IMG/VR virus record: IMGVR_UViG_2582581022_000016
Source: a virus
Lineage: Duplodnaviria > Heunggongvirae > Uroviricota > Caudoviricetes
Direction: 5' to 3' (one strand)
Length of the DNA: 27,569 nucleotides
Shown: in pieces, positions 3,531 to 27,569 of the stretch
How the letters are laid out: every line of letters begins with the position of its first letter
How positions within the stretch are numbered: position 1 is the stretch's first letter
Notes under the pieces: model-generated
Seen by the model: the letters and a program-made list of their open reading frames with translations, nothing else
What the model was told of the DNA's origin: nothing
Database searches by the model: none
Program-made: the position numbers and the translations under genes

Positions 3531-3988
3531 AGATGAGTTATTGGGCGCTCATTTTAACGTTTATTGCTTGTATTGCTGGTGGTCTTGTCTGGTCAGCTAA
3601 TCATTACCACAATAAAGCCATTGAATACAAAAAACAGCGCGACGAAAACGCTATGGCATTAGATTCGGCTATGGCGACGATCTCTGATATGCAGAAGCGT
3701 CAACGTGACGTAGCAGAACTCGATGCCAGATATACAAAGGAGCTTGCTGATGCTAACGCGACTATCGAAAGTCTCCGTGCTGATGTTTCTGCTGGTCGTA
3801 AGCGCCTGCAAGTCGCCGCCACCTGTGCAAAGTCAACGACCGGAGCCAGCGGCATGGGCGATGGAGAAAGCCCAGGACTTACAGCAGATGCTGAACTCAA
3901 TTATTACCGTCTCCGAAGTGGAATCGACAGGATAACCGCGCAGGTTAACTACCTGCAGGAGTACATCAGGACTCAGTGCTTAAAATAA
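3527..3988 (+). CDS. Rz-like i-spanin (N-terminal TM helix plus coiled-coil periplasmic domain)
   Basis: 153 aa. N-terminal TM ALILTFIACIAGGLVW, then charged helical sequence. Start overlaps the endolysin stop (ATGA). Contains an embedded +1 frame lipoprotein ORF. Confidence 0.75.
   Translation: MKMSYWALILTFIACIAGGLVWSANHYHNKAIEYKKQRDENAMALDSAMATISDMQKRQRDVAELDARYTKELADANATIESLRADVSAGRKRLQVAATCAKSTTGASGMGDGESPGLTADAELNYYRLRSGIDRITAQVNYLQEYIRTQCLK
3750..3935 (+). CDS. Rz1-like o-spanin (proline-rich outer-membrane lipoprotein) embedded in the +1 frame of Rz
   Basis: ORF track gives 3723..3935; ATG 3750 follows AAGGAG (3739..3744). Signal peptide MLTRLSKVSVLMFLLVVSA, lipobox VSA-C, then KSPPPVQSQRPEP. 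Fully nested in the Rz gene as in lambda Rz/Rz1. Confidence 0.7.
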   Translation: MLTRLSKVSVLMFLLVVSACKSPPPVQSQRPEPAAWAMEKAQDLQQMLNSIITVSEVESTG

Positions 3989-4030
3989 TTTTAACTTCAC
4001 TGAAATTTAACAAGTGACTTTCAGGAAAAT

Positions 4031-4054
4031 GCCTCGCAGAAGCGGGGCTTTTTT
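4031..4054 (+). terminator. Intrinsic terminator after the lysis cassette (GCCTCGC-AGAA-GCGGGGC then TTTTTT)
   Basis: 7-bp stem with one G-U pair, tetraloop, 6-T tract; read directly. Confidence 0.55.
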
Positions 4055-4201
4055 ATGTCCTCAGTAAATGCGCTTCACACGCGCGACTTATGAACACAGA
4101 GCCTTTCAGGATGACCCTTGAGGATGCCGGTTTGGTTATCGGTGCCTTTCTGTGGGCCGGAATCCTGTGTGACAAGGTTCATCACTAAAAGGTAATTACC
4201 G

Positions 4202-4744
4202 ATGAATTATCCAACTATCGTTGACGGCATTGATTTCAAAGAACTGGTTTTTATTACCAACAATGACCCTGTCACCGATTCATTTATGGTGGCGAAAGCA
4301 TTTCGTAAGCGACATGACAACGTTGTGCGTGATGTAGAAAGAACTATCGCTGCTTGTCCTGAAGAGTTTGATACAAAACTCAATTTTGAGGTTTGCTATA
4401 AAAACAATGAGTTACAGAATGGTAAGCCACAAAAATTCTATCGGCTACGTAAGGATGGGTTGATGCTTTTGGTTATGTCCTACACCAAAAAAGAAGCAAT
4501 GCGTATCAAAATTGCTTACATCAACGCATTCAACTGGATGTACGCCATGCTTCAGGTTGGTAATCGTCAATTTGAAGAAGAGCGAAATGCCGTAATGCTG
4601 GAGTACATGAAAGAGAAGGATGTTGCCAGCATGTCAGGTCGCCTGCTAAATCGCTGGGGAAAAATTAAGAAGCCACAGCTGCTGGCTAGAATTGAACGCC
4701 TTGAACAGCACGGGCAAACCGTAATCCCCGGACTCACCAATTAA
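4202..4744 (+). CDS. Rha-family phage regulatory protein
   Basis: 180 aa. N-terminal VTDSFMVAKAFRKRHDNVVRDVER matches the conserved Rha N-terminal signature as I recall it. Confidence 0.7.
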   Translation: MNYPTIVDGIDFKELVFITNNDPVTDSFMVAKAFRKRHDNVVRDVERTIAACPEEFDTKLNFEVCYKNNELQNGKPQKFYRLRKDGLMLLVMSYTKKEAMRIKIAYINAFNWMYAMLQVGNRQFEEERNAVMLEYMKEKDVASMSGRLLNRWGKIKKPQLLARIERLEQHGQTVIPGLTN

Positions 4745-4924
4745 CGGCAGCACCGCGAAACAACCCAAGCCAGTAAGTGGGGAAATAACACTGGCAGCCA
4801 CTGAAAGATGAACCTCCAGCCTTATGGCAAAAAAGATTCTTTGTGGTGGCGGACTGATGGAAAGACATCGGTTATTGCAGAGGCCATTCAATGAGTGGTC
4901 TCGACAATGGCTTATACCCTGCAC

Positions 4925-4950
4925 GGGATAACTTAACTGATATCCCTTTT
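4925..4950 (+). terminator. Terminator-like hairpin (GGGATA / TATCCC, 10-nt loop, then TTTT)
   Basis: Read directly. Lies in the 286-bp non-coding gap between the Rha gene and the HNH gene. Confidence 0.35.
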
Positions 4951-5030
4951 AACGGATAAACGGAGCCAATAATGGCAGAGAATGTCGGCATTATGGCAGT
5001 GAAATTTGGATAAATCGGAGATTAGTACAT

Positions 5031-5381
5031 ATGCCGCCACGAATCCCAAAAGCCTGCCGTGTTCGCGGTTGCCGCCATACCACCACAGATCCGTCAGGCT
5101 ATTGTGAAAGCCACAAAAGCGAAGGCTGGAAGCAATACAAGCCAGGCCAGTCCCGGCACCAGCGCGGTTATGGTTCGAAATGGGATGTTATCCGTGAACG
5201 TGTGCTCAAGCGTGACAAAGGCCTGTGTCAGTTATGTCTGCGTGCCGGTGTGGTGCGTGAGGCGAAAACCGTTGACCACATCATCCCTAAAGCGCATGGC
5301 GGCACAGATGCCGACAGCAATCTGCAGAGCCTGTGCTGGCCGTGCCATAAGGCGAAGACGGCCCGTGAACGGCTAAAGTGA
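5031..5381 (+). CDS. HNH endonuclease (packaging-associated, adjacent to terminase)
   Basis: 116 aa. HNH-type His/Asn/His pattern (DHIIPKAHGG...N...LCWPCHKAK) plus N-terminal CxxC...C...H. Immediately upstream of the small terminase, as in HK97-like cos phages. Confidence 0.85.
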   Translation: MPPRIPKACRVRGCRHTTTDPSGYCESHKSEGWKQYKPGQSRHQRGYGSKWDVIRERVLKRDKGLCQLCLRAGVVREAKTVDHIIPKAHGGTDADSNLQSLCWPCHKAKTARERLK

Positions 5382-6001: not shown

Positions 6002-7731
6002 GCCGGAAATCTTACCCCAACGTAAATGCTGCCAATCAGTATGCCCGTGATGTCGTGCGCGGAAAGATTGTGGCCTGCCAGTTTGTGATTCAGGCCTGCC
6101 AGCGCCATCTTGATGACCTGATGGCGGAAAAAAGTAAGTCGTTTCGTTACCGCTTCGACAAGGACCTGGCTGAACGGGCCGCCAAATTTATTCAGCTGTT
6201 GCCACACACCAAGGGGGAGTGGGCATTCAAACGGATGCCCATCACGCTGGAGCCGTGGCAGCTCTTTGTGATCTGCTGTGCGTTTGGCTGGGTCAATAAA
6301 GGTACCCGGCTGCGCCGCTTCCGGGAGGTGTATACCGAAATCCCCCGTAAGAACGGCAAATCGGCAATTTCTGCCGGTGTCGCCCTGTATTGTTTTGCCT
6401 GTGATAACGAGTTCGGCGCGGAAGTGTATTCCGGTGCCACGACGGAGAAACAGGCATGGGAAGTCTTTCGCCCGGCGCGACTGATGTGTAAACGCACACC
6501 CATGCTGACGGAAGCGTTCGGGATTGAGGTTAACGCCTCAAACATGAACCGTCCGGAGGATGGCGCGCGGTTTGAACCGCTGATCGGTAACCCCGGTGAT
6601 GGATCATCACCCCACTGTGCGGTGGTGGATGAATATCACGAGCACGCCACCGATGCGCTTTACACCACGATGCTTACCGGGATGGGGGCGCGACGTCAGC
6701 CACTGATGTGGGCCATTACTACTGCCGGGTACAACATTGAGGGGCCGTGCTACGACAAGCGGCGGGAAGTTATCGAGATGCTCAACGGGTCGGTACCCAA
6801 CGATGAACTGTTCGGGATCATCTATACCGTTGATGAAGGTGACGACTGGACCGACCCGCAGGTGCTGGAAAAAGCCAATCCAAATATTGGCGTGTCGGTT
6901 TATCGCGAATTTTTGTTAAGTCAGCAGCAGCGTGCGAAAAATAACGCCCGTCTGGCAAACGTCTTTAAAACAAAACACCTCAATATCTGGGTGTCGGCGC
7001 GTTCGGCGTATTTCAACCTGGTGAGCTGGCAGAGCTGCGAGGATAAATCACTGACCCTTGAGCAGTTCGAGGGGCAGCCGTGCATTCTGGCCTTTGACCT
7101 GGCGCGTAAGCTGGATATGAACAGCATGGCGCGACTTTATACCCGCGAGATTGACGGTAAAACGCATTACTACAGTGTGGCCCCGCGTTTCTGGGTACCG
7201 TATGACACGGTGTACAGCGTCGAGAAAAATGAAGAGCGACGGACAGCCGAACGCTTTCAGAAATGGGTGGAAATGGGCGTTCTGACCGTTACCGATGGTG
7301 CGGAGGTGGATTATCGCTACATCCTCGAGGAGGCCAAAGCGGCGAACAAAATCAGCCCGGTCAGTGAGTCACCCATCGACCCCTTCGGGGCGACCGGGTT
7401 GTCACATGACCTTGCTGATGAAGACCTGAACCCCATCACTATCATTCAGAACTACACCAACATGTCCGACCCGATGAAAGAGCTGGAAGCGGCAATTGAA
7501 TCGGGGCGCTTTCATCATGATGGCAATCCCATCATGACCTGGTGTATCGGCAACGTGGTCGGCAAAACCATTCCGGGTAACGATGATGTGGTGAAGCCCG
7601 TCAAAGAGCAGGCGGAAAACAAAATCGATGGTGCAGTTGCGCTGATTATGGCGGTTGGCAGAGCCATGCTGTACGAGAAAGAAGACACGCTGTCTGACCA
7701 CATTGAGTCCTATGGGATCCGCTCGCTTTAA
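5998..7731 (+). CDS. Terminase large subunit
   Basis: 577 aa. Walker-B-like segment ([11 protein letters not shown]) followed by a nuclease-domain-sized C-terminus. Start overlaps the small-terminase stop; portal gene follows. Confidence 0.9.
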
Positions 7732-7742
7732 CTGAGGTAATT

Positions 7743-7925
7743 ATGATCATGCTGATTCTCGCGCCTCTGGTGGGCGTGCTGGGGGCGCTTTTGCTGGCGT
7801 ATGGTGCCTGGCTGATTTATCCCCCGGCGGGGTTTGTTGTTGCCGGGGCGTTGTGCCTGTTCTGGTCGTGGCTGGTGGCGCGATATCTCGACCGTACACA
7901 GTCGTCTGTCGGCGGAGGTAAATAG
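7743..7925 (+). CDS. Small hydrophobic protein (60 aa, 2 predicted TM helices), unknown function
   Basis: Tightly packed between terminase and portal genes; almost entirely hydrophobic. Could be a short real gene or a translated spacer. Confidence 0.35.
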
Positions 7926-9166
7926 TGTTCTTTTCGGGATTATTTCAACGAAAAAGTGACGCACCGGTGACCACGCCAGCAGAGCTGGCGGATGCTATCG
8001 GGTTGTCCTACGACACCTATACCGGAAAGCAGATCAGCAGCCAGCGGGCCATGCGACTGACGGCGGTTTTTTCCTGTGTCAGGGTGCTGGCGGAGTCGGT
8101 CGGGATGTTGCCCTGCAATCTGTATCACCTGAACGGCAGCCTTAAACAGAGAGCCACCGGCGAACGTCTGCATAAGCTGATCTCCACGCATCCCAATGGC
8201 TATATGACGCCGCAGGAGTTCTGGGAGCTGGTGGTCACCTGTCTGTGCCTGCGGGGAAACTTTTACGCCTACAAAGTGAAAGCATTTGGCGAAGTGGCTG
8301 AACTGCTGCCCGTCGATCCCGGCTGTGTGGTACCGAAGCTTAACAGTAGCTGGGAGCCGATCTATCAGGTCACATTCCCGGATGGCTCCACGGATGTACT
8401 GAGCCAGGAGGATATCTGGCATGTGCGCACGCTGACGCTGGACGGACTGGTGGGGCTGAATCCCATCGCCTATGCCCGCGAGGCAATATCGCTGGCAGCT
8501 GCGACCGAAGAGCACGGGGCCAGACTGTTCAGCAATGGCGCGGTGACGTCGGGTGTGTTGCGTACAGAGCAGACGCTGTCAGATCAGGCTTATGAGCGCC
8601 TGAAGAAAGATTTTGAGGAGCGTCACACCGGGCTTGGCAATGCTCACCGCCCGATGATCCTTGAGATGGGGCTGGACTGGAAGTCGATGGCGCTGAACGC
8701 CGAGGACAGCCAGTTCCTGGAAACCCGCAAGTTTCAGCTTGAAGAAATCTGTCGTCTGTTCCGGGTGCCGTTGCACATGGTGCAGAACACCGATCGCGCC
8801 ACCTTCAACAATATCGAAGAGCTGGGGCTGGGATTTATCAACTATTCACTGGTGCCGTATCTGACCCGCATCGAGCAGCGGATCAACACCGGACTGGTTC
8901 GAAAAAGTAAGCAGGGCGTTTATTACGCCAAATTTAACGCCGGGGCGTTACTGCGCGGGGATATGAAGTCCCGTTTTGAAGCCTACGCCACCGGGATTAA
9001 CTGGGGAATTTACTCTCCCAATGACTGCCGCGACCTGGAAGATATGAATCCGCGTCCCGGTGGTGATGTCTATCTCACACCGATGAACATGACCACGAAA
9101 CCCTCCGATGGCAGTAAAGCCGGTAAGCAGAAGGATAACGCCAATGCAGACGAAACAACGTCTTGA
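7925..9166 (+). CDS. Portal protein (HK97-family type)
   Basis: 413 aa. GTG start 7925 preceded by GGAGGT (7913..7918). Size and gene order (terminase, portal, protease, capsid) typical of HK97-like heads; sequence character fits portal proteins as I recall them. Confidence 0.85.
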   Translation: MFFSGLFQRKSDAPVTTPAELADAIGLSYDTYTGKQISSQRAMRLTAVFSCVRVLAESVGMLPCNLYHLNGSLKQRATGERLHKLISTHPNGYMTPQEFWELVVTCLCLRGNFYAYKVKAFGEVAELLPVDPGCVVPKLNSSWEPIYQVTFPDGSTDVLSQEDIWHVRTLTLDGLVGLNPIAYAREAISLAAATEEHGARLFSNGAVTSGVLRTEQTLSDQAYERLKKDFEERHTGLGNAHRPMILEMGLDWKSMALNAEDSQFLETRKFQLEEICRLFRVPLHMVQNTDRATFNNIEELGLGFINYSLVPYLTRIEQRINTGLVRKSKQGVYYAKFNAGALLRGDMKSRFEAYATGINWGIYSPNDCRDLEDMNPRPGGDVYLTPMNMTTKPSDGSKAGKQKDNANADETTS

Positions 9167-9794
9167 TGTACCGCTGAGTCTGAAATCTGTCAGTGACTCC
9201 GGTGAGTTTGAAGGGTATGGCTCCGTCTTTGGTGTAAAGGACAGCCACGATGATGTGGTGATGTCCGGGGCATTTGCTGCTTCCCTGCGGGCGTGGAGTG
9301 ACAGAAAAGCGTTACCTGCGCTGCTCTGGCAGCACCGCATGGATGAACCCATCGGTGTTTACACCGAAATGAAGGAAGACGATGTCGGGCTTTACGTCAG
9401 GGGGCGGTTGCTCATTGATGATGATCCCCTGGCAAAACGCGCACATGCACACATGAAGGCCGGTTCGTTAACCGGCCTTTCTATTGGGTACGTCCTGAAG
9501 GACTGGGAATACGACCGGACGAAAGAAGCCTTTCTGCTGAAAGAAATCGACCTCTGGGAAGTCAGTCTGGTGACGTTTCCGGCTAACGACGAGGCGCGGA
9601 TCAGCGACGTCAAGAACGCGCTGGCCCGCGGGGAAATCCCCGAACAGAAAAAAATCGAAAGAGTCCTGCGTGATGTCGGACTCTCCCGTACCCAGGCCAA
9701 AGCATTCATGGCCGGGGGCTATGGCGCACTGTCCCTGCGCGACGCTGAGGATGTGGGCTCTGCACTGAATGCACTGAAAAATCTGAACTTCTAA
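9144..9794 (+). CDS. Prohead maturation protease (HK97-type)
   Basis: ORF track gives 9108..9794; ATG 9144 follows AAGGA. Motif GYGSVFGVKDSHDDVV resembles the HK97-type prohead protease active-site region. Overlaps the portal 3' end. Confidence 0.8.
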   Translation: MQTKQRLDVPLSLKSVSDSGEFEGYGSVFGVKDSHDDVVMSGAFAASLRAWSDRKALPALLWQHRMDEPIGVYTEMKEDDVGLYVRGRLLIDDDPLAKRAHAHMKAGSLTGLSIGYVLKDWEYDRTKEAFLLKEIDLWEVSLVTFPANDEARISDVKNALARGEIPEQKKIERVLRDVGLSRTQAKAFMAGGYGALSLRDAEDVGSALNALKNLNF

Positions 9795-9808
9795 TCAGGA
9801 GAAATACG

Positions 9809-11014
9809 ATGGCGGTTGATATTAAAGATGTCGAACAGGTCGCGCAGGAGCTGCAGCAGAAGTTTGACGACTTCAAAGCAAAGAACGACAAGCGCGTGGA
9901 TGCGATTGAGCAGGAAAAAGGCAAGCTTGCCGGGAAGGTGGAAACCCTGAACGGGAAACTCAGCGAGCTGGAAAATCTCAAAAGCGACCTTGAAAAAGAG
10001 CTGCTTGAGCTGAAACGTCCGGCAGGTGGAGCGCAAAATAAACTGGCCACCGAGCATAAAGAGGCGTTTGTGGGCTTCCTGCGTAAAGGCCGTGAAGACG
10101 GTCTGCGCGATCTGGAGCGTAAGGCATTGCAGGTGGGTACCGATGAAGACGGTGGCTACGCCGTGCCGGAAGAACTGGATCGCAACATTCTTAACCTGCT
10201 GAAAGATGAAGTGGTGATGCGTCAGGAAGCCACGGTGATCACCGTTGGCGGTTCCGACTACAAAAAACTGGTGAATCTGGGCGGTACGGCTTCCGGATGG
10301 GTGGGGGAAACGGATACGCGATCCCAGACTGCCACCTCCAGACTGGAGCTGATTGAACCTCTCATGGGGGAAATCTACGGCAACCCGCAGGCTACCCAGA
10401 AAATGCTGGACGATGCCTTCTTCAACGTGGAGGCCTGGATCAACAGCGAGCTGGCAACCGAATTTGCCGAACAGGAAGAAATTGCCTTTACCTCAGGCAA
10501 TGGCACCAAGAAGCCGAAAGGGTTCCTGGCGTATGAATCCACTGATGAAACCGACAAGGTCCGGGCGTTCGGCAAACTTCAGCATATTGTATCCGGCGAA
10601 GCGACCGCGGTGACCGCAGACGCCATTATCAAACTGATTTACACGCTGCGTAAGGCACACCGCACTGGCGCGAAGTTCATGATGAACAACAACAGCCTGT
10701 TTGCCATACGTTTGCTGAAAGACACCGAGGGTAACTATCTGTGGCGTCCGGGGCTGGAACTGGGGCAGCCGTCCTCTCTGGCGGGTTACGGTATCGCTGA
10801 AAACGAACAGATGCCGGATATCGCCGCTGATGCGAAAGCCATTGCATTTGGTAACTTCAAACGGGGTTACACCATCGTTGACCGTATCGGCACCCGCATT
10901 CTGCGTGACCCGTACACCAATAAACCGTTTGTCGGTTTTTATACCACCAAGCGCACCGGCGGGATGCTGGTCGATTCGCAGGCCATCAAACTGCTGAAGA
11001 TTGCAGCGGCGTAA
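9809..11014 (+). CDS. Major capsid protein (HK97 fold) with N-terminal coiled-coil delta/scaffold domain
   Basis: 401 aa. N-terminal about 100 residues are charged and coiled-coil-like. Followed by a GC-rich hairpin. Confidence 0.9.
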   Translation: MAVDIKDVEQVAQELQQKFDDFKAKNDKRVDAIEQEKGKLAGKVETLNGKLSELENLKSDLEKELLELKRPAGGAQNKLATEHKEAFVGFLRKGREDGLRDLERKALQVGTDEDGGYAVPEELDRNILNLLKDEVVMRQEATVITVGGSDYKKLVNLGGTASGWVGETDTRSQTATSRLELIEPLMGEIYGNPQATQKMLDDAFFNVEAWINSELATEFAEQEEIAFTSGNGTKKPKGFLAYESTDETDKVRAFGKLQHIVSGEATAVTADAIIKLIYTLRKAHRTGAKFMMNNNSLFAIRLLKDTEGNYLWRPGLELGQPSSLAGYGIAENEQMPDIAADAKAIAFGNFKRGYTIVDRIGTRILRDPYTNKPFVGFYTTKRTGGMLVDSQAIKLLKIAAA

Positions 11015-11021
11015 TCACTCA

Positions 11022-11042
11022 GGGGCGCGGAACCGCGCCCCC
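11022..11042 (+). terminator. Stable GC hairpin after the capsid gene (GGGGCGCGG-AAC-CCGCGCCCC); stabiliser or partial terminator
   Basis: 9-bp perfect GC stem read directly. No strong T-tract follows, so termination efficiency is uncertain. Confidence 0.4.
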
Positions 11043-11063
11043 TGTTCTGACGGGTGAAGAATC

Positions 11064-11264
11064 ATGATCCTGAAACAAGATCTGAAATGGTCACCGGACG
11101 GTATGCGTGTTGAGGTCATTCGGGCCGGTGAGTATGACGACGGGGCGCTTCCTGCCCGGGTGCAGGAGATTGCACTTCAGGCCGGGTTAGCAGAGCGCGG
11201 AATCAGTGCAAAAAGCAGTAAAGCGGCAAAAGAGAAAAAAGCCACGACCAGTAAAGAGGGCTGA
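11064..11264 (+). CDS. Hypothetical small protein (66 aa) with Lys/Ala-rich tail
   Basis: ORF between capsid and connector genes; no family recognised. Confidence 0.4.
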   Translation: MILKQDLKWSPDGMRVEVIRAGEYDDGALPARVQEIALQAGLAERGISAKSSKAAKEKKATTSKEG

Positions 11265-11266
11265 GT

Positions 11267-11590
11267 ATGCTTCTGACAATGGAAGAGATTAAAGCCCAAC
11301 TCCGGCTGGATGAGGATTTCGATGCTGATGACCGCCATCTGCAACTGCTGGCCTGTGCGGCACAAAAGCGGACGGAAACGTATCTGAACCGGAAGCTCTA
11401 TGCACCGGATGAAACCATTCCGGACAGCGATCCGGACGGGCTGCACCTGCCGGATGATATTCGTCTGGGGATGCTGATGCTTATCAGCCATTTTTACGAA
11501 AACCGCTCGTCGGTTACGGAAGTGGAGAAACTCGACATGCCGCAGAGTTTTGGCTGGCTTGTCGGCCCGTACAGGTACTTTCCGCAATGA
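11267..11590 (+). CDS. Head-tail connector / DNA-packaging protein (gp6-like)
   Basis: 107 aa; position and size. Family assignment from memory. Confidence 0.6.
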   Translation: MLLTMEEIKAQLRLDEDFDADDRHLQLLACAAQKRTETYLNRKLYAPDETIPDSDPDGLHLPDDIRLGMLMLISHFYENRSSVTEVEKLDMPQSFGWLVGPYRYFPQ

Positions 11591-17978: not shown

Positions 17979-19307
17979 ATGACGTGGAAAGACAGGCTTC
18001 AGGATGCGTCATTTCGCGGCGTACCGTTTAAGGTTGAAGAAGAAAGTGCGGGAACCGGTCGCCGTGTGGAAACACACGAATATCCGAACCGCGACAAGCC
18101 CTATACCGAAGATCTGGGAAAAGTCACTTTCCGCCCGTCCATCACAGCTTATGTGGTGGGAGATGACTGCTTTGACCAGCGCGATCGCCTGATTGAAGCG
18201 CTGAATAAACCCGGTCCCGGCACGCTTGTCCACCCGACATATGGTGAGCTGAAAGTCTGTGTTGACGGGGAAGTTCGGGTCAGCACATCGAAAAGTGAAG
18301 GGCGTATTGTCCGCTTTGACCTGAAGTTTGTCGAAGCAGGAGAACTCTCTTACCCCACATCAGGTGCGGCGACGGCGCAAACGCTGATGTCATCCTGTTC
18401 TGCACTGGATGACTGCATCAGTGACAGCTTCAGCGGTTTCAGTATCGATGGTGTGGCGGATTTCGTGCAGAACGACGTCGTCGGTAATGCCAGCACAATG
18501 CTTGGGTATGTTTCTGATGCGATGAAAGTGGTGGATTCTGCCGTATCGGATGCCGCCAGGCTGTTGCAGGGGGATATCTCGGTACTTCTGCCGCCGCCAT
18601 CGTCAGGCAAAAATTTCGTTGAGCAGGTGCAGAAAATGTGGCGTACCGGGAAACGCCTTTATGGTAACGCCAGCGACCTGGTCACCATGATCAAAACGCT
18701 TTCCGGTGTCAGCCTCGGCAGCGATCTGCAACCGCGCGGCGTCTGGAAAACGGACAGTAAAACCACCGCCACGGCGACGCAGCAGCGTAACGTGGTTGCC
18801 AGCACCCTTCGTACGACCGCAATCAGCGAAGCGGCGTATGCCGTCACCCGATTGCCTGCGCCAACAATTTCTGCGGTGATGCAGAATGCCGCAGTGGGGC
18901 AGGCAACAACACCCGCGCAGAGCACTGGCTGGCCTTCCGTCACGCATCCGGCACTGAACAATGCACCGGCGGTGAAAAACACGGTTGACCTGCCGACGTG
19001 GGAAGAACTGACTGACATTCGCGACACACTGAATACGGCAATTGATAAGGAGTTGTCCCGTACAACCAGTGATGCGCTGTTTCTGGCGCTGCGCCGGGTG
19101 AAAGCAGATCTGAATGCGGATATCAACACGCGCCTTGAACAGTCTGCACGGATCATTCAGCGCACGCCGGATGAGGTTTTACCCGCGCTGGTGCTGGCGG
19201 CGACCTGGTTTGATAACGCGGCGCGTGACGCGGACATTATCCGGCGTAATGCCATTACACATCCCGGCTTTGTGCCGGTGATCCCTCTGAAGGTGCCAGT
19301 GCAATGA
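17979..19307 (+). CDS. DNA circulation protein (Mu gpN-like) of the baseplate/tail tip
   Basis: ORF track gives 17949; ATG 17979 follows GGAG (17971..17974). N-terminus MTWKDRLQDASFRGVPF...THEYPNRDKPYTEDLG matches the Mu N-like DNA-circulation N-terminal domain as I recall it. Confidence 0.75.
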   Translation: MTWKDRLQDASFRGVPFKVEEESAGTGRRVETHEYPNRDKPYTEDLGKVTFRPSITAYVVGDDCFDQRDRLIEALNKPGPGTLVHPTYGELKVCVDGEVRVSTSKSEGRIVRFDLKFVEAGELSYPTSGAATAQTLMSSCSALDDCISDSFSGFSIDGVADFVQNDVVGNASTMLGYVSDAMKVVDSAVSDAARLLQGDISVLLPPPSSGKNFVEQVQKMWRTGKRLYGNASDLVTMIKTLSGVSLGSDLQPRGVWKTDSKTTATATQQRNVVASTLRTTAISEAAYAVTRLPAPTISAVMQNAAVGQATTPAQSTGWPSVTHPALNNAPAVKNTVDLPTWEELTDIRDTLNTAIDKELSRTTSDALFLALRRVKADLNADINTRLEQSARIIQRTPDEVLPALVLAATWFDNAARDADIIRRNAITHPGFVPVIPLKVPVQ

Positions 19308-20383
19308 ACGACAATGTCACGCTACGGGTAAATGGCCGGGAGTGGAATGGCTGGACATCGGTGCGCATCGGTGCCGGTATTGAACGGCTGGCGCGGGATT
19401 TCAGTGTGGAGATCACTCGCCAGTGGCCGGGAGATGAGGGTATCACCACGCTTCAGCCGCGCATTAAAAACGGTTCAAAAGTGGAAGTGCTGATTGGTGA
19501 TGAGCTGGTGATCACCGGCTGGGTGGAGGCGACTCCCGTTCGTTACGATGCCCGTTCGGTCAGCACCGGTATTGCCGGACGTAGTCTGACGGCTGACCTG
19601 ATTGACTGTGCAGCCGAACCGACACAGTTTAACGGACGCTCGCTGGTGCAGATTGCGCAGGCGCTTGCTGCGCCTTTCGGCATTGAGGTGGTGAACAGCG
19701 GTGCGCCGTCGGGTGTTATTCCTGATGTTCAGCCTGATCACGGTGAAACGGTGATTGAGGTAATCAACAAAATACTCGGTCAGCAGCAGGCGCTGGCTTA
19801 CGACGACCCGCACGGCAGGCTGGTGATTGGCGGTATTGGCTCAACGCGGGCACATACCGCGCTGGTACTTGGGGAAAACATCCTTTCCTGTGATACGGAG
19901 AAGAGTATCCGGGAGCGGTTTTCTGTTTACCAGGTGGCGGGGCAGCGTGCCGGAAACGACGATGATTTCGGTGAGGCCACCACCACCGCGCTGCGGGCCC
20001 GCACAGAGGACGCATTTATTGCCCGTTACCGTCCGATGTATATCAGGCAGACAGGGCAGGCTACGGGGGCAGGCTGTATTGCCCGTGCGGACTTTGAAGC
20101 CCGACAACGGGCGGCGCGGACGGATGAAACCACCTATGTGGTGCAGGGCTGGCGACAGGGTAACGGTACGCTGTGGCAGCCAAACCAGCGGGTGATTGTC
20201 TTTGATCCGGTCTGTGGTTTCGACAATACCGAACTGCTTGTTTCGGAAGTCACGTTTACTCAGGACCAGAACGGCACCCTGACGGAAATCCGTGTCGGCC
20301 CACCTGATGCTTATCTGCCTGAGCCCGAAGCCCCCGGCGCGCGGAAAAAGAAAAAAGCCAGAGTACAGGAGGACCCGTTCTGA
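19304..20383 (+). CDS. Baseplate hub protein (Mu gpP-like / P2 gpD-like)
   Basis: 359 aa; overlapping start; position after the DNA-circulation protein. Confidence 0.75.
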   Translation: MNDNVTLRVNGREWNGWTSVRIGAGIERLARDFSVEITRQWPGDEGITTLQPRIKNGSKVEVLIGDELVITGWVEATPVRYDARSVSTGIAGRSLTADLIDCAAEPTQFNGRSLVQIAQALAAPFGIEVVNSGAPSGVIPDVQPDHGETVIEVINKILGQQQALAYDDPHGRLVIGGIGSTRAHTALVLGENILSCDTEKSIRERFSVYQVAGQRAGNDDDFGEATTTALRARTEDAFIARYRPMYIRQTGQATGAGCIARADFEARQRAARTDETTYVVQGWRQGNGTLWQPNQRVIVFDPVCGFDNTELLVSEVTFTQDQNGTLTEIRVGPPDAYLPEPEAPGARKKKKARVQEDPF

Positions 20384-20931
20384 TGAGGACGATTGAAGCC
20401 ATGCAGCGACAACTTCTCGGCCTGATTGGGCGGGCCGTTGTGAAAAGCATCAGTGCCGCCACGAAATGTCAGACCGTGGATGTGTCCCTGATTGCCGGTG
20501 AACCCAAAGCAGGGGTTGAACATCTTGAACCCTACGGTTTTACCGCAAGGGCAAACAGCGGTGCGGAAGCGGTGGTGTTGTTTCCGGATGGCGACCGTTC
20601 TCATGCGGTGGTTGTTACGGTGTCGGACCGGCGCTACCGCCTGAAAGGGCTGCAGACGGGTGAGGTGGCTGTCTATGACGATCAGGGGCAGTCCGTGACG
20701 CTGACCCGGGAGGGGATCGTGGTGGACGGTGCAGGTAAAACGATCACGTTTCGCAATTCACCTAAAGCACGTTTTGAAATGGACCTGGAAGTGACAGGAC
20801 AGGTGAAAGACCTGTGCGACTCCGGCGGCACCACCATGTCAGCGATGCGGCTTGCCTATAACGGGCATCGTCACAGAGAGAACGGTCAGGGCAGTAATAC
20901 CGACAAACCTGATAAAGCGATGGAGGCATGA
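20383..20931 (+). CDS. Baseplate assembly/spike protein (Mu gp45-like, gpV-like)
   Basis: 182 aa; overlapping start (TGATGA); position in the conserved baseplate order. Confidence 0.75.
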   Translation: MRTIEAMQRQLLGLIGRAVVKSISAATKCQTVDVSLIAGEPKAGVEHLEPYGFTARANSGAEAVVLFPDGDRSHAVVVTVSDRRYRLKGLQTGEVAVYDDQGQSVTLTREGIVVDGAGKTITFRNSPKARFEMDLEVTGQVKDLCDSGGTTMSAMRLAYNGHRHRENGQGSNTDKPDKAMEA

Positions 20932-21356
20932 TGGAACTGTGGCTGACGGTGAACGGTAAACGCACCTGCGCCAGCGCACCGCTGGATCCGCTGACCCGCG
21001 CCGTGGTGATTTCCCTGTTTACCTGGCGGCGGGCGGAGCCTGATGACAACGCCGACGTCCCGATGGGATGGTGGGGGGATACCTGGCCTGCGGTACAGAA
21101 TGACCGTTACGGCTCCCGACTGTGGCTGCTTCAGCGCAGCAAACTGACCAATCAGCTGGTGCAGACGGTAAGGGGGTATATCCGCGAATGCCTGCAATGG
21201 ATGATTGATGATGGCGTGGTGTCCCGTATTGATCTGGATATCCGCCGCACCGGGATTAATGAACTGGGTAACAGTATCACTCTCTGGCGTCGTGACGGAC
21301 CGGTAATGATTTCTTTTGATGATCTGTGGAGTGCGATAACGCATGGCGGACAGTGA
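20928..21356 (+). CDS. Baseplate wedge protein (Mu gp46-like, gp25/W-like)
   Basis: 142 aa; overlapping start; position in the conserved baseplate order. Confidence 0.65.
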   Translation: MMELWLTVNGKRTCASAPLDPLTRAVVISLFTWRRAEPDDNADVPMGWWGDTWPAVQNDRYGSRLWLLQRSKLTNQLVQTVRGYIRECLQWMIDDGVVSRIDLDIRRTGINELGNSITLWRRDGPVMISFDDLWSAITHGGQ

Positions 21357-22401
21357 ATTTCAGCGCCCGACGCTGGCAGAAAATATCAGTATGCTCCGTA
21401 ACGATTTATTCGCCAGGCTGGACGTCAGCGACACGCTCCGGCGCATGGATGAAGACGTGCGGGCAAAGGTGTATGCGGCGGCGCTGCATACGGTTTACGG
21501 GTACATCGATTATCTGGCAATGAACATGCTGCCTGACCTGTGCGATGAGTCCTGGCTGGCGCGACATGCTGCGATGAAACGGTGTCCGCGCAAGGGGGCC
21601 ACGGCTGCCAGCGGGTATATGCGCTGGGAAGGTGTCAGCGATGGCCTGAAGGTGACCGCCGGGAGTGTTATTCAGCGCGATGACCTGGTTCAGTACACGG
21701 CAACTGCCGATGCAACCAGCTCCGGTGGTGTCCTGCGCGTGCCGATCGCCTGCTCAAGTGCAGGCGCGGTCGGTAACGCTGACGACGGTACGTCATTAAT
21801 CCTGGTCACGCCGGTGAATGGTCTGCCGTCTTCCGGCGTGGCAGATACACTGACAGGTGGATTTGATACTGAAGAGCTGGAAACGTGGCGCGCCCGCGTC
21901 ATTGAGCGGTATTACTGGACGCCTCAGGGCGGGGCTGACGGGGACTATGTCGTCTGGGCTAAAGAAGTTCCCGGCATTACCCGCGCATGGACATACCGAC
22001 ACTGGATGGGAACGGGGAATGTCGGTGTGATGATTGCCAGCAGCGACCTGATTAATCCCATTCCGGAAGAATCAACGGAAACGGCGGCAAGACAACATAT
22101 CGGGCCACTGGCCCCGGTGGCAGGCTCTGATTTGTATGTGTTCAGGCCGGTGGCGCATACGGTGGATTTTCATATCCGTGTGACGCCGGATACACCAGAA
22201 ATACGGGCTGCCATCACCGCCGAGTTGCGTTCGTTCCTGCTGCGTGATGGTTATCCGCAGGGAGAACTGAAGGTGTCGCGTATCAGTGAAGCGATTTCCG
22301 GTGCGAACGGGGAATACAGCCATCAGTTGCTTGCACCGGCAGACAATATCTCCATTGCAAAAAATGAACTGGCGGTACTGGGGACGATTTCATGGACGTG
22401 A
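21343..22401 (+). CDS. Baseplate J-like protein (Mu gp47-like)
   Basis: 352 aa; size and position; I recognise the jayE-like arrangement of the e14 prophage. Confidence 0.8.
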
Positions 22402-22976
22402 CAAACGATGATTACATCCGTCTGTTGTCGGCACTGTTGCCCCCCGGTCCGGCGTGGTCAGCCAGCGATCCGGCGATTGCCGGTGCGGCACCGTCATTAA
22501 CCCGCGTTCATCAGCGTGCGGATGCCCTGATGCGGGAGCTGGATCCGCGCACCACCACTGAACTGATAAACCGCTGGGAGCGTCTGTGCGGTCTGCCGGA
22601 TGAATGTATTCCCGCAGGGACACAGACCCTTCGCCAGCGTCAGCAACGGCTGGATGCGAAGGTTAACCTGGCGGGCGGCATCAACGAGAATTTTTATCTT
22701 GCACAGCTTGCTGCCCTGGGCAGACCAGACGCCACCATCACGCGATACGATAAAAGCACGTTCACCTGCTCATCTGCCTGTACTGACGCGGTGAATGCGC
22801 CGGAATGGCGGTATTACTGGCAGGTCAACATGCCAGCCGCCACCAACACCACCTGGATGACATGTGGCGATCCCTGTGATTCCGCACTGCGTATCTGGGG
22901 CGACACCGTTGTCGAGTGTGTGCTTAACAAACTCTGCCCTTCGCATACCTACGTAATTTTTAAATATCCGGAGTAA
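22392..22976 (+). CDS. Baseplate/tail protein (Mu gp48-like; DUF2313, YmfQ-like)
   Basis: 194 aa; resembles e14 prophage YmfQ in length and sequence character; directly upstream of the tail fibre gene. Confidence 0.75.
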
Positions 22977-22979
22977 TCC

Positions 22980-23960
22980 ATGCATCGTATAGACACGAAA
23001 ACCGCGCAGAAGGATAAGTTCGGCGCGGGTAAGAACGGTTTTACCCGTGGTAACCCCCAGACCGGCACGCCTGCCACCGATCTGGATGATGACTACTTTG
23101 ACATGTTGCAGGAAGAACTCTGCAGCGTGGTGGAGGCATCCGGTGCCAGTCTGGAGAAGGCGCGGCACGACCAGTTGCTTACCGCGCTTCGTGCTCTGCT
23201 GTTAAGCCGCAAGAATCCGTTTGGCGATATCAAATCGGATGGCACTGTGCAAACGGCTCTCGAAAACCTTGGTATTAAAAACGCATCAACAACACAGGTG
23301 GGTTTAGTCCGGTTAACGTCATCGCGGGTATCGGGTGCAGAGGATATTGCAGCCACAGCTAATGCTGTCGCGCAAAACTATACGGACATAAAATCTTTGC
23401 AAAACAAAACTCAGGATTCAACTACGACACAGAAAGGAATTGTTCAACTTACATCATCAAGGGTATCCGAATCTGAAACGCTTGCTGCAACAGCAAAAGC
23501 GGCAGCGATGAATTATGCGGATATACAGGCGTTGCAAGGCAAGACCAATGATGCGACCCCAACAAACAAGGGAATTATCCGCGTATCTGATTCCAGAACA
23601 TCGACGGAATCTGGTGTTGCTGCATCATCACTTGCTGCATCACAAAACTATTCAGATATGAAAGGGTTGTTTGGTCAATGCGGAATGAAATATAGAAATC
23701 TCGGTGTCGTATACACCAACAGCCAGTCTTTCGCCATATTTGTAAGCGTCAATGCGGTGCTGTCTGACGGTAGTTCATTTCTGAGCGCCAACGTTAATGT
23801 GGATGGTAATTCGGCTAATTTTCGCGGCTCTCAGACAACAAATCTTGCAGGGCAAAGAGCAACTATCGCATTCATGGTTCCTGCCGGTGCGACCTATATT
23901 GTGCAGCAGTTTTCAGGAACAGTGTCAGATGTTACCTGGGTAGAGGTGGATAAAAAATGA
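22980..23960 (+). CDS. Tail fibre protein with three tandem repeats of about 40 aa and a C-terminal receptor-binding region
   Basis: 326 aa. Conserved-looking N-terminus, repeats [40 protein letters not shown] / [40 protein letters not shown] / [37 protein letters not shown], then a divergent C-terminus. Confidence 0.85.
23286..23669 (+). repeat. Three tandem copies of a ~120-bp coding repeat inside the tail fibre gene (phage fibre repeat)
   Basis: Seen at protein level (residues about 103-230) and reflected in the DNA. Confidence 0.7.
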
Positions 23961-24325
23961 TAACAATGATGAAGTATTACAAAGATGAAAATAACGTCGT
24001 ATATGCCTACGATGCGTATGGCACACAGGATGCTTTTATCAAAGAAGGGCTTGTGCCAATCACCAGAAGTGAGGTTATGGCAATTATTAATCCCCCACCG
24101 ACTCATGAACAACTCATCCAGGCTGCTGAAAATGAGCGACAGCGATTACTGTCCGCCGCTGATGCAATTATGCTCGACTGGCGCACAGAGCTGATGCTGG
24201 GTGAAATCAGCGATGCCAACAGAGCTAAACTTTCGGCGTGGCTTTTATATAAGAATCAGGTTAAGGCTGTTGATGTAACAACCGACCCTGAGCATGTTAA
24301 CTGGCCTGTCATCCCGGAACTTTAG
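23957..24325 (+). CDS. Tail fibre assembly protein (Tfa/U-like chaperone)
   Basis: 122 aa; start overlaps the fibre stop (ATGA). Conserved-looking N-terminus (YAYDAYG...) and C-terminus resemble tail fibre assembly proteins as I recall them. Confidence 0.8.
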
Positions 24326-24516
24326 CTGGTTTGGCTATTGCCAGATCCAAAGGCCGGATTGGTGGGCGTAGACCGAAGTTTAGCGACGAGCAGTGGCAAC
24401 AGATGGGAGCGCTCATAGCGGCAGGGAAATCACGGCGTTATGTTGCACGTATCTATAACGTTGGGCTATCAACCCTATATAAACGATTTCCTGTTACTGG
24501 CATTCAAACGAAATAA
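24319..24516 (+). pseudogene. C-terminal remnant of a serine invertase (Gin/Pin/Cin/Hin family): helix-turn-helix DNA-binding domain only, catalytic domain missing
   Basis: Translation [56 protein letters not shown] matches the C-terminal end of Hin/Gin-type invertases as I recall them. Similarity begins around 24319, overlapping the tfa stop. The frame is open back to a TAA at 24298..24300, with no room for the ~130-aa catalytic domain. ORF track reports a TTG-initiated 61-aa ORF at 24331..24516. Confidence 0.7.
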
Positions 24517-24659
24517 TTTAAAAGCAATTTAAAGAGTTATTTGTCTAATGTTGGAAGCCGCAGCCACGTCGTATGCAAGAACGTGCTGCGGCTGGCTGGC
24601 GAACTTTCGATAGTGCGATTATTGAATGATTTCCAGCCGTTACCGATTTTACGTGTTAA

Positions 24660-24908
24660 TTAGTGAACAAACCACTCGTCAGCAGATTCCCAGGTATCTT
24701 TCAGAGTCTCCTGAACAAAAGTTTTTGCAGAATCCTTATCTGCGGTGCGTGTAACAGAAAGGCCATCGTTGCTGGTGGCTTTTACGATCACCTCTACATC
24801 GTCATAACGTTTACTGATGCGTCGGGTTAATTCTTCCTTTAACGCATCCACAGCACCGGTTGGCATTTTAGTCATTTTTTCTTTGGCTATGCAGATTTCA
24901 ATACGCAT
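24660..24908 (-). CDS. dinI: DinI-family protein (DNA-damage-inducible protein I homolog, prophage-encoded)
   Basis: 82 aa. MRIEICIAK...LKEELTRRI...[16 protein letters not shown] matches E. coli DinI closely as I recall it. GAGGGA Shine-Dalgarno 5 nt upstream of the ATG on the minus strand; two LexA boxes upstream. Confidence 0.85.
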
Positions 24909-24921
24909 AAAAGTCCCTCTA

Positions 24922-24941
24922 TACTGTGTTTGTATACAGTA
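24922..24941 (-). promoter_or_regulatory. LexA (SOS) box 1: TACTGTGTTTGTATACAGTA
   Basis: Matches CTGT-N8-ACAG with TA-rich flanks; lies in the promoter/5' UTR of the dinI homolog. Confidence 0.75.
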
Positions 24942-24949
24942 TTATTTTT

Positions 24950-24969
24950 AACTGTATGGATAAACAGTG
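24950..24969 (-). promoter_or_regulatory. LexA (SOS) box 2: AACTGTATGGATAAACAGTG
   Basis: Second CTGT-N8-ACAG match, 28 bp from box 1 centre to centre; abuts the integrase stop codon (24970). Confidence 0.65.
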
Positions 24970-26067
24970 TCAAGGGGTCTTATTTCTGCTCCTTTGGAGC
25001 TCTTCAAAACGATTATGTAAAGATTTCGGATACAGTTCGGTATATACCTGCCATAGCACGTTTAATGAACGATGCCCTGTAACCTGGGCCACTTCCTCAA
25101 TACTAAAACCAGCCTCAAATAAGCGACTTGCCCCTTCTCTACGCAAATCATGGTATCGCAGATCCTTAATACCTAATTTGCTTCTTACCCTCTGAAATCC
25201 CGCAGTAACAGAAGTGCTGTTATATGGAAAAATGAATTCCGATTTTTTGGGCTGTCGTTGGACGATATCCCAGGCTTCCCCAAGCAAGGCTACTTTCATG
25301 TGGTTGCCTTCCTTTTTGCGTGGATCTTTCCTGTCTCTTACGAGTATAGATTTTTGTTCCTGGTCGAGATCTTCCCATCGTAACCGGCATACTTCTCCGA
25401 TTCGCATACAGGACCACACAGAAAATTTGAGGATATCAACGAACGGAATTTTTGAGCATTTATGAGTAGATCGTTGTTGAAGGCCTTCAATGAGCATGTC
25501 CAGTTCATCAGATGCTGGTCTACGATTACGACGGTTTGATTTACCAATCAAACCAAGTTTAAGTAGATATGGACGAGCACTTTTCGCCGGGTTTGATGTG
25601 TAATTAATTCCGTATACAGGTTTGGCCGCATCCAGAACACTGCCAAGATAACTAACATCGTGGCTGACTGTTGCTGGACCTGCGCCAGCGTTGTTTCTTA
25701 GCCTGCAATGTTCAATTACGTCATTTTCTGTCAGTTCAGATAGTTTGATCGCGGAGATGTCACTATCCATAAGCAGTTCCAGCACATATCTTTTAGTACG
25801 GCCTGCTTTACCTCCGGCATTTGGGTCATTTAAATATTTGTGTAGTAAGTCACGGACTGTAAGTCCGTCAACTGCATTTGATGATGGAATGCCATATAGA
25901 TCTAATTCCATCACTTTCTGTGTGCCCCATGTTTTGGCATGAGCATGTTTAGGGAATGTTTTGCTTTCCCTGTAAGTGATAACACCTTTTTCTTTGATAA
26001 TCACATTACAGCGATAGCGTGGTGTGCCATCGGATTTTAGTCGTTTCTCTATGTTATAGTACGCCAT
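24970..26067 (-). CDS. int: Tyrosine recombinase / phage integrase, dusA-associated type
   Basis: 365 aa with the catalytic signature of tyrosine recombinases (R in CMRIGEVCRLR, H-x-x-R in YHDLRREG, GHRS, Tyr near the C-terminus). Lower GC than tail genes. Divergently adjacent to the dusA 5' end. Confidence 0.9.
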   Translation of the reverse strand: MAYYNIEKRLKSDGTPRYRCNVIIKEKGVITYRESKTFPKHAHAKTWGTQKVMELDLYGIPSSNAVDGLTVRDLLHKYLNDPNAGGKAGRTKRYVLELLMDSDISAIKLSELTENDVIEHCRLRNNAGAGPATVSHDVSYLGSVLDAAKPVYGINYTSNPAKSARPYLLKLGLIGKSNRRNRRPASDELDMLIEGLQQRSTHKCSKIPFVDILKFSVWSCMRIGEVCRLRWEDLDQEQKSILVRDRKDPRKKEGNHMKVALLGEAWDIVQRQPKKSEFIFPYNSTSVTAGFQRVRSKLGIKDLRYHDLRREGASRLFEAGFSIEEVAQVTGHRSLNVLWQVYTELYPKSLHNRFEELQRSRNKTP

Positions 26068-26086
26068 TACACGACCTCGTTATTTC

Positions 26087-26122
26087 GGGTTCCCATAAAA
26101 CGTGGGAACCTGTGCGGGAACC
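26087..26122. repeat. Three copies of GGGAACC (one inverted at 26088..26094, two direct at 26104..26110 and 26116..26122) in the int-dusA intergenic region; candidate operator or recombinase-binding sites
   Basis: Read directly; GGGTTCCCA-TAAAACG-TGGGAACC forms an 8-bp inverted repeat, followed by a third direct copy. Confidence 0.35.
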
Positions 26123-26155
26123 TAATGCGAGAAAAATAGCCTGAAATGTTCAAAA

Positions 26156-27193
26156 ATGCACGATAATCATGAAACACAAAAAATTAATCAAACCAGCGTG
26201 ATGCCTGAAAAAACTGGTGTTTACTGGAATTCTCGGTTTAGCATTGCTCCTATGCTTGACTGGACGGACAGACATTGCCGTTATTTCTTGCGTCTGCTTT
26301 CCCGCAATACGTTGCTGTATACCGAAATGGTGACCACAGGGGCGATTATTCACGGTAAAGGTGATTACCTGGCGTACAGTGAAGAAGAACATCCGGTAGC
26401 GTTGCAACTCGGGGGTAGCGATCCGGCGGCGCTGGCACAGTGTGCGAAGCTGGCAGAAGCGCGTGGATACGATGAGATCAACCTGAATGTCGGCTGCCCG
26501 TCTGACCGGGTGCAGAACGGCATGTTTGGTGCGTGTCTGATGGGTAATGCGCAGCTGGTTGCCGACTGCGTGAAAGCGATGCGCGATGTGGTGTCGATTC
26601 CGGTGACGGTGAAAACGCGTATTGGCATCGATGATCAGGACAGCTATGAATTTCTCTGCGATTTCATCAACACCGTTTCCGGCAAAGGTGAGTGTGAGAT
26701 GTTCATCATCCACGCACGTAAAGCCTGGCTTTCTGGGTTAAGTCCGAAAGAAAACCGTGAGATCCCGCCGCTCGATTATCCGCGTGTGTATCAACTGAAG
26801 CGTGACTTTCCGCATCTGACGATGTCGATTAACGGTGGTATCAAGTCGCTGGAAGAAGCTAAAGCGCATTTGCAACATATGGATGGCGTGATGGTCGGGC
26901 GCGAGGCGTATCAGAATCCGGGTATTCTGGCGGCGGTAGACCGAGAGATTTTTGGTTCCTCGGATACTGATGCTGATCCGGTGGCGGTAGTGCGCGCCAT
27001 GTATCCGTACATTGAGCGTGAACTCAGCCAGGGTACGTATCTCGGCCATATTACCCGGCATATGCTGGGCTTGTTCCAGGGTATTCCTGGCGCGCGGCAG
27101 TGGCGGCGTTATTTAAGTGAAAATGCCCATAAAGCGGGTGCAGACATTAATGTGCTGGAACACGCGCTCAAACTGGTGGCGGATAAGCGTTAA
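26156..27193 (+). CDS. dusA: tRNA-dihydrouridine synthase A (host gene, integration target of the prophage)
   Basis: 345 aa. Dus-family motifs ([28 protein letters not shown]) and overall sequence match E. coli DusA as I recall it. Confidence 0.9.
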
Positions 27194-27230
27194 CTTTTCA
27201 CCAAAAAGTAGTCAAATTCACCACGCCCTG

Positions 27231-27251
27231 CGCCCCGTCGCGGGGCGTTTT
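27231..27251 (+). terminator. Intrinsic terminator after dusA (CGCCCCG-TCG-CGGGGCG then TTTT)
   Basis: 7-bp perfect GC stem, 3-nt loop, T-tract; read directly. Confidence 0.6.
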
Positions 27252-27274
27252 GCTGTTAAATCAATAGATTATTT

Positions 27275-27291
27275 TTGGCATGATTCTTGTA
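27275..27291 (+). promoter_or_regulatory. Candidate sigma-54 promoter for pspG (TGGCAT-N6-TTGT; GG and GT spaced as the -24/-12 elements)
   Basis: GG at 27277..27278 and a TTG(T) element 10 nt downstream. pspG is known to be sigma-54/PspF dependent. The -12 element is GT rather than the consensus GC. Confidence 0.45.
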
Positions 27292-27326
27292 ATGCCAGCA
27301 AGAGATTTCATATTTGGGAGAGCATC

Positions 27327-27569
27327 ATGCTGGAACTACTTTTTGTAATTGGCTTTTTTGTCATGCTGATGGTCACCGGTGTTTCGTTGCTGGGTATTAT
27401 CGCCGCGCTGATTGTGGCGACGGCCTTTATGTTCCTCGGCGGTATGCTGGCATTGATGATTAAGTTGCTGCCGTGGCTGCTGTTGGCGGTTGCGGTGGTG
27501 TGGGTGATCAGGGCGATAAAAGCACCAAAAGTGCCGAAATATCAGCGTTATGACCGCTGGCGTTACTAA
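27327..27569 (+). CDS. pspG: Phage shock protein G (small inner-membrane protein)
   Basis: ATG 27327 with GGGAGAG upstream; 80 aa; MLELLFVIGFFVMLMVTGVSLLGIIAAL...KAPKVPKYQRYDRWRY matches E. coli PspG as I recall it. ORF track's longer 27117 start is an upstream in-frame extension. Stop TAA is the last codon of the window. Confidence 0.85.
   Translation: MLELLFVIGFFVMLMVTGVSLLGIIAALIVATAFMFLGGMLALMIKLLPWLLLAVAVVWVIRAIKAPKVPKYQRYDRWRY

Follow-up and report, generated by a model that had tools for sequence, protein, structure and literature searches.

Does the short open reading frame (ORF) that directly follows the tail fibre and chaperone genes of this prophage still belong to a working tail-fibre switch, does it encode a DNA-binding peptide in its own right, or is it dead? 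We addressed this question within the whole stretch of DNA that was analysed, 27,569 nucleotides long and here called the window. Our reading, which we hold with high confidence, is that the frame is the non-functional remnant of a serine DNA invertase gene in an otherwise complete SKA5-like dusA prophage, and that the tail-fibre switch of this prophage is fixed in one state.

The window holds the right end of a dusA prophage

The prophage in the window is integrated in dusA, and the window covers its late region and right end. Its genes run in the order Q antiterminator, lysis, terminase, head, Mu-type tail and baseplate, fibre, chaperone, remnant ORF, DinI-like protein, tyrosine integrase, dusA and pspG, and over most of positions 99-26259 it matches Escherichia phage SKA5 at 96-99.8% identity. 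The fibre and chaperone genes directly upstream of the remnant are both intact in the window, as are the ORFs in the rest of the late region. The right-end order of dinI, integrase and dusA is the same in SKA5, 19-5, EcPF16 and TF5. The features around the remnant are as follows.

22980-23960, plus strand: tail fibre gene, chimeric, 326 aa (Pfam Phage_fiber_2, E=5.7e-14)
23957-24325, plus strand: tail fibre assembly chaperone, intact, 122 aa (Pfam Caudo_TAP, E=1.7e-18; the match reaches the profile end)
24317-24516, plus strand: invertase remnant (end of helix E, GRIGGRRPK arm, helix-turn-helix)
24331-24516, plus strand: mechanical ORF with a TTG start at 24331, 61 aa
24556-24593, no strand: strong GC-rich hairpin between the convergent remnant and dinI, in the conserved right arm
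24660-24908, minus strand: DinI-like gene (Pfam DinI, E=1.1e-19)
24970-26067, minus strand: tyrosine integrase (Pfam Phage_integrase, E=1.1e-20)
26156-27193: dusA, adjoining the conserved right end of the prophage

The region around the hairpin (24510-24640) folds at -45.1 kcal/mol, with z=-4.8 against shuffles. The terminator scan did not call the hairpin and no T-run follows it; judged by its predicted fold, it is probably a transcription stop.

Identity to SKA5 runs about 100 nt into the dusA frame (window 26156-26259), so the prophage would supply a replacement 5' end of dusA, as expected for dusA-specific integrases; at the same spot, SKA5 is annotated with a 123-nt 'tRNA-dihydrouridine' CDS. 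Two stretches of the window have no match in SKA5: 3609-5031, which encodes a Rha/ORF11CD3 regulatory protein (4202-4744), and 7653-11480, which replaces the portal, protease and capsid module. An Rfam scan of the whole window gave no match.

The reading frame is the 3' third of an invertase gene

As the mark of the catalytic domain of a serine DNA invertase we took the N-terminal Resolvase domain (PF00239), with its nucleophilic serine near residue 9-10. A Pfam search with the translation of 24301-24516 returned HTH_7 (PF02796; E=1.2e-12, 48 bits against a cut-off of 23.8), and the remnant peptide had no Resolvase match. The remnant aligns to residues 123-181 of the 193 residues of Gin (3uj3; E=1.9e-17) and to the 52-residue DNA-binding domain of Hin (1hcr; E=3.2e-5). 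It keeps the C-terminal HTH_7 domain together with the preceding GR-GGR minor-groove arm, its GRIGGRRPK being aligned to GRIGGRPPK of Gin. The original prediction was right that the ORF encodes the C-terminal helix-turn-helix domain of a Gin/Pin/Hin-type invertase and that the catalytic N-terminal domain is absent, homology beginning at codon 122.

At the nucleotide level, BLAST gave 684 of 684 identical bases from 24317 on against the invertase 3' end and downstream DNA of SKA5 and 19-5. Position 24317 is the second base of codon 122 in the 187-aa invertase of these prophages, and 24317-24516 make up the 3' third of the gene (codons 122-187) plus the stop codon. The remnant is, base for base, the last 200 nt of the sister prophages' invertase gene; the first 363 nt, catalytic serine included, are gone at the window locus. 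The peptide that had been placed at 24301-24516 is present as quoted, but the invertase DNA begins at 24317 and not at 24301. Positions 24301-24316 are chaperone coding sequence in another frame, read as 'LACHPG'. The resemblance is real and far beyond chance. In summary, the ORF is what remains of a member of the Gin/Hin/Pin/Cin family, and it is no working invertase or switch, because neither the catalytic domain nor the paired sites nor the alternative genes remain.

Sister prophages retain the full switch

SKA5 (OR670062.1) and the prophage of E. coli 19-5 (NZ_CP047010.1), both at the dusA site, retain a full switch, arranged as fibre, chaperone, inverted chaperone, inverted fibre tip, invertase, dinI and integrase. 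The intact SKA5 invertase (187 aa) begins MIYGYVRVST and carries a Resolvase domain (2-135) and an HTH_7 domain (138-179), and the alternative genes on the minus strand of SKA5 have Caudo_TAP and Collar-domain matches in Pfam. The earlier proposal that this position is the home of an invertase switch is thus borne out by two intact examples.

Both prophages share with the window their family and integration site, the constant fibre part, the outer crossover half-site, the invertase 3' end, dinI and the integrase. In them the fibre tip, the chaperone and the crossover site each occur twice, and the 187-aa invertase is complete. In the window only invertase codons 122-187 remain, the single crossover site is half-degenerate, and the one fibre tip and chaperone are unrelated to theirs. 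Relative to SKA5, the window locus reads as a cassette replacement plus a truncation.

The window locus is without the invertase promoter region, the second crossover site and the opposite-strand fibre and chaperone genes. Minus-strand ORFs under 22770-24219 (at most 132 aa) gave no Pfam match, in agreement with the earlier observation that inverted alternative fibre and chaperone genes are lacking. With no catalytic domain, second site or alternative genes, the locus appears unable to invert on its own, and the phage would make one fibre type only, because it has neither a recombinase nor a partner site.

One crossover site survives and marks the left boundary

23257-23282, no strand: sole remaining crossover (gix/pix-like) site, CTCTCGAAAACC TT GGTATTAAAAAC

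The search for gix/hix-like sites returned this one site in the window. It scores 15/20 against the consensus TTCTCNNAAACCNNGGTTTNNGAGAA, and no second site of at least 14/20 was found in the 27.5-kb window, which leaves it without a partner. Degeneration is confined to the inner half-site (GGTATTAAAAAC versus GGTTTGGGAGAA), while the outer half-site and the central TT are preserved. The intact relatives have two sites each, scoring 19/20 and 15/20 in SKA5 and 18/20 and 15/20 in 19-5. In SKA5 these form a 20-nt inverted repeat, the site within the fibre gene reading CTCTCGAAAACC TT GGTTTGGGAGAA and the one just upstream of the invertase TTCTCCCAAACC AA CCTTTCAAATAT. The repeat of e14 and Mu-type switches, AAACCTTGGTTTGGGAGAA, has the same first 10 bases as the window's crossover site (PMC4272514 Table S1).

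The constant N-terminal part of the fibre (to 23273) is that of the dusA-prophage family, with positions 22902-23273 being 96.5-97.6% identical to SKA5, 19-5 and TF5. Identity between the window and the SKA5 family stops at 23273, within the crossover site. From about 23258/23274 on, the variable C-terminal part of the fibre is encoded by a cassette that P2-like prophages also have. The left boundary of this cassette is the core of the crossover site.

The fibre cassette is shared with P2-like prophages

Over 23258-24324 (fibre tip and chaperone) the cassette is 99.5% identical to the P2-like prophage of 23AR0998 and 98.8% identical to that of EcPF16. On its left side the cassette adjoins a crossover core of the same kind in these prophages as in the window. 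Unlike the window, both have a P2-type fibre N-terminus. Between the chaperone and an intact invertase of another allele, both copies also have the same 105-bp spacer, whose end falls within a second crossover-like site.

No inverted alternative genes lie beside the cassette in the P2-like prophages of 23AR0998 and EcPF16. When we searched for an intact two-cassette switch containing the window's fibre tip, the cassette occurred in only 15 genomes, none of them with inverted partners. The alternative genes were probably already missing from the cassette before the invertase was truncated. The proposal that a deletion froze the locus therefore survives in part: the invertase N-terminus, the second site and the alternative genes are indeed gone, but a single deletion that took the alternative genes together with the N-terminus is unsupported and need not have occurred, because the cassette of the P2-like relatives already has one gene set.

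In these P2-like prophages (extracted locus 2992-4229 in 23AR0998 and 2468-3700 in EcPF16), the intact invertase adjoins a segment between two crossover-like cores with weak inner half-sites, and this segment contains one fibre tip, one chaperone and the 105-bp spacer only. Either inversion there would uncouple the fibre tip and not swap it, or the switch is dead despite its intact enzyme. Within the window's fibre tip, positions 23290-23680 encode three tandem diverged copies of a Phage_fiber_2 repeat of about 40 aa (T-x-x-G-I/L-V-x-L-T/S-S...). Strain differences cluster in the fibre tip, which holds 27-28 of the 34-36 differences in the E2348/69 and EcPF16 copies.

The right junction lies at an eight-base microhomology

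24317-24324, no strand: deletion or illegitimate-recombination junction, 8-bp microhomology GAACTTTA

Mapping the end-points against intact relatives placed the right junction at 24317-24324, opposite the left boundary at the crossover core. The octamer GAACTTTA is common to the 3' end of the chaperone gene and to invertase codons 122-124, and a three-way alignment resolves the junction as follows.

23AR0998 (chaperone side): ...CATCCCG GAACTTTA AACCATAC...
SKA5 (invertase side): ...AGCGAGC GAACTTTA GCTGGTTT...
Window: ...CATCCCG GAACTTTA GCTGGTTT...

The chaperone C-terminus (...PVIPEL*) is the same in the window and in 23AR0998. Its stop codon is TAA in 23AR0998 and TAG in the window, where the last base comes from invertase-derived DNA. 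We then used a junction-spanning probe on our survey set of 5,426 complete E. coli genomes; partial matches end at base 85 or begin at base 78, which corresponds to an 8-base overlap. The microhomology could be coincidental to a break-and-join event.

Distribution of the junction and of the intact allele

Among the 5,426 genomes, the 200-bp remnant sequence is present in 83, nearly always within an intact 'recombinase family protein' gene, and the N-terminal part of the invertase in 92; the intact allele occurs in about 75-80. The exact junction is found in five records from two strains, EPEC E2348/69 (four assemblies) and EcPF16. It also occurs in three Logan contigs with the same 326-aa fibre, one of which is 100% identical to window 19000-27569. 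In both strains RefSeq lists the junction ORF as a pseudogene, 'helix-turn-helix domain-containing protein, incomplete, missing N-terminus' (E2348C_RS27245 in E2348/69 and HR074_RS20790 in EcPF16). These loci match the window's junction base for base and have a fibre-tip cassette that is 97-98% identical; unlike in the window, where the fibre is intact, their fibre genes are annotated as pseudogenes. The fibre gene of the EcPF16 dusA prophage has an internal deletion alongside this annotation.

The recurrence of the junction bears on the possibility that the truncation is an assembly artefact, in which assembly collapsed a repeat-bounded invertible region and so hid an intact switch in the real genome. 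Short reads can mis-assemble invertible regions with inverted repeats. However, the identical junction appears in closed genomes (four independent assemblies of E2348/69, and EcPF16) as well as in three independent read-set assemblies, and, instead of coinciding with the inverted repeats, it falls at a microhomology within coding sequences. We regard an artefact as next to impossible.

In E2348/69 the same junction sits in a different, unrelated prophage, with an intS integrase, an argW site and other baseplate genes, and homology to the window spans 23205 to 24669. Because this unrelated argW prophage carries the same junction, the block appears to have moved between prophages. An identical chaperone protein (WP_112039112.1) is encoded in both the P2-like and the dusA prophages of EcPF16 (extracted loci 3168-3536 and 3598-3966), and the comparison suggests fibre-module exchange between these co-resident prophages. 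Remnant copies differ by 0-1 substitutions in 200 bp, so a test of conservation or selection on the remnant has no power. By this measure the remnant appears young, and its conservation is uninformative either way.

A homology search with the 61-aa ORF returned eight short HTH-only clusters, the full-length family not being among them. The same invertase, or a related one, is also truncated in TF5 (extracted locus 3228-3647), in a 94-aa E. coli cluster and in several Salmonella fragments, and the HTH-only fragments of E. coli and Salmonella have different end-points and lengths of 49-94 aa. Since these truncations are independent, decay of invertase switches appears to be recurrent. TF5 retains a fragment of the inverted chaperone gene.

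The ECONIH5 prophage next to torT has a mosaic, frameshifted invertase (extracted locus 4138-4700) beside an otherwise complete two-cassette switch. This gene led us to reject codon 122 of the invertase as a recombination hot spot: its identity to the SKA5 allele rises from about 78% to 100% at about nt 273, not at nt 364.

Could the locus still rearrange?

Invertases of the Gin/Hin family need two inverted sites on one supercoiled domain and a nearby enhancer. In Gin and Hin systems the Fis-dependent recombinational enhancer sits in the 5' part of the invertase gene; because the whole 5' 363 nt of this gene are absent from the window, the enhancer at its canonical place is gone. Rearrangement would depend on a trans-acting invertase that uses the surviving crossover site with a distant site, and the outcome would be large inversions or deletions, not a local flip. 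The outer half-site and core of the surviving site, AAACCTTGGT, match repeats of active e14 and Mu-type switches, and E2348/69 has active invertases with repeats sharing AAACCTTGGTTTGGGAGAA, including AAACCTTGGT... (PMC4272514 Table S1). Trans action by the Pin family is documented as well (PMC12529663). Against this stand the degenerate inner half-site of the window's site, described above, and a genome-wide inversion scan of E2348/69, which detected inversions only at 1.89, 2.75 and 2.98 Mb (PMC4272514 Table S1). The E2348/69 junction lies at 2.588 Mb in locus coordinates, where that scan, with limited sensitivity and on a sister allele, reports no inversion. The negative scan is supportive of a lost switch, as seen in a sister allele and not in the window strain itself, and we consider continued rearrangement of the locus highly improbable.

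Is the remnant expressed?

The original prediction had also allowed that the leftover ORF is made as a stand-alone DNA-binding peptide. Such a peptide, if its translation were coupled to the chaperone stop or began at the internal ATG (24403), would bind crossover sites and might, for example, block the invertases of co-resident prophages or repress a promoter. The frame is uninterrupted, and in the late operon the chaperone stop precedes its TTG by 5 nt; read-through or re-initiation is conceivable. The GRIGGRRPK arm and the complete helix-turn-helix are kept. Structures of the 52-residue Hin domain on its own have been solved (1hcr and related entries); in them the domain is bound to hix half-site DNA. 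HTH-only invertase fragments recur in E. coli and Salmonella. Invertases are also documented to act in trans between prophages, as PinQ does on e14 (PMC12529663).

The signals that such a peptide would need are missing. The promoter scan called no sigma-70-like or other promoter-like site on the plus strand of 22800-25000, no clear Shine-Dalgarno lies in the 20 nt before the TTG (24331) or the internal ATG (24403), and the exact 61-aa product is absent from the gene-call collection. A product from the internal ATG would, moreover, lack the minor-groove arm. The variable end-points of the recurring HTH-only fragments (49-94 aa) are as expected from random decay and not from a selected form. The junction is rare (2/5,426 strains), and the remnant is too young, at 0-1 changes, for conservation to inform. 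With its promoter region deleted, no clear Shine-Dalgarno, no called product and a pseudogene label in RefSeq, the proposed peptide finds no support, and we judge it very unlikely. Argued from these missing signals, the remnant is probably not expressed.

It would likewise be a long shot that the remnant is not inert, either through a read-through product that acts as an anti-inversion factor on co-resident switches or through its DNA, as a right-hand homology arm by which the block hops between unrelated prophages. The homology-arm role, if true, would explain why the block is found at both dusA and argW.

A proposed history of the locus

The reading that we prefer, a dead invertase remnant beside a switch fixed in one state, can be cast as three steps. 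A cassette of P2-like type, consisting of fibre tip and chaperone, would have entered the dusA prophage at the core of the crossover site. The octamer GAACTTTA would have been present twice, at the chaperone stop and at invertase codon 122, and illegitimate recombination or a deletion between these two copies would then have removed the intervening DNA. The resulting block of crossover core, fibre tip, chaperone, remnant and about 150 bp of downstream DNA may later have spread between prophages by recombination.

If the ancestor consisted of the cassette, the spacer and an SKA5-type invertase, about 0.54 kb was lost, and the truncating event may have removed only about 0.5 kb. A synthetic chimeric probe for this predicted intermediate (cassette, 105-bp spacer and SKA5-type invertase) gave no high-identity full-length match in the 5,426 complete E. 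coli genomes. No intact ancestor that pairs the cassette with the window's invertase allele was found, so in what order the events took place, and how large they were, is only inferred.

Comparison with known invertase switches

The window locus shares its layout with the Gin/G segment of Mu, Cin/C of P1, Pin/P of e14 and Hin of Salmonella: the invertase sequence comes right after the fibre and chaperone genes, and the crossover site marks the boundary between the constant and variable fibre parts. Unlike these systems, it is without the catalytic domain, the enhancer region, the second site and the alternative genes, and is unable to work as a switch. The remnant is an ordinary, recently formed and already-annotated kind of pseudogene. 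The ORF is better labelled an invertase pseudogene than a gene, and the prophage is better read as one of fixed tail-fibre specificity; beyond annotation, the result matters little. Fibre-module swapping at crossover cores and switch loss by deletion are well established for the fibre regions of Mu, P1, P2 and e14 type, and this locus adds a base-resolved example in which a module swap at a crossover core is joined to the loss of the switch by microhomology deletion.
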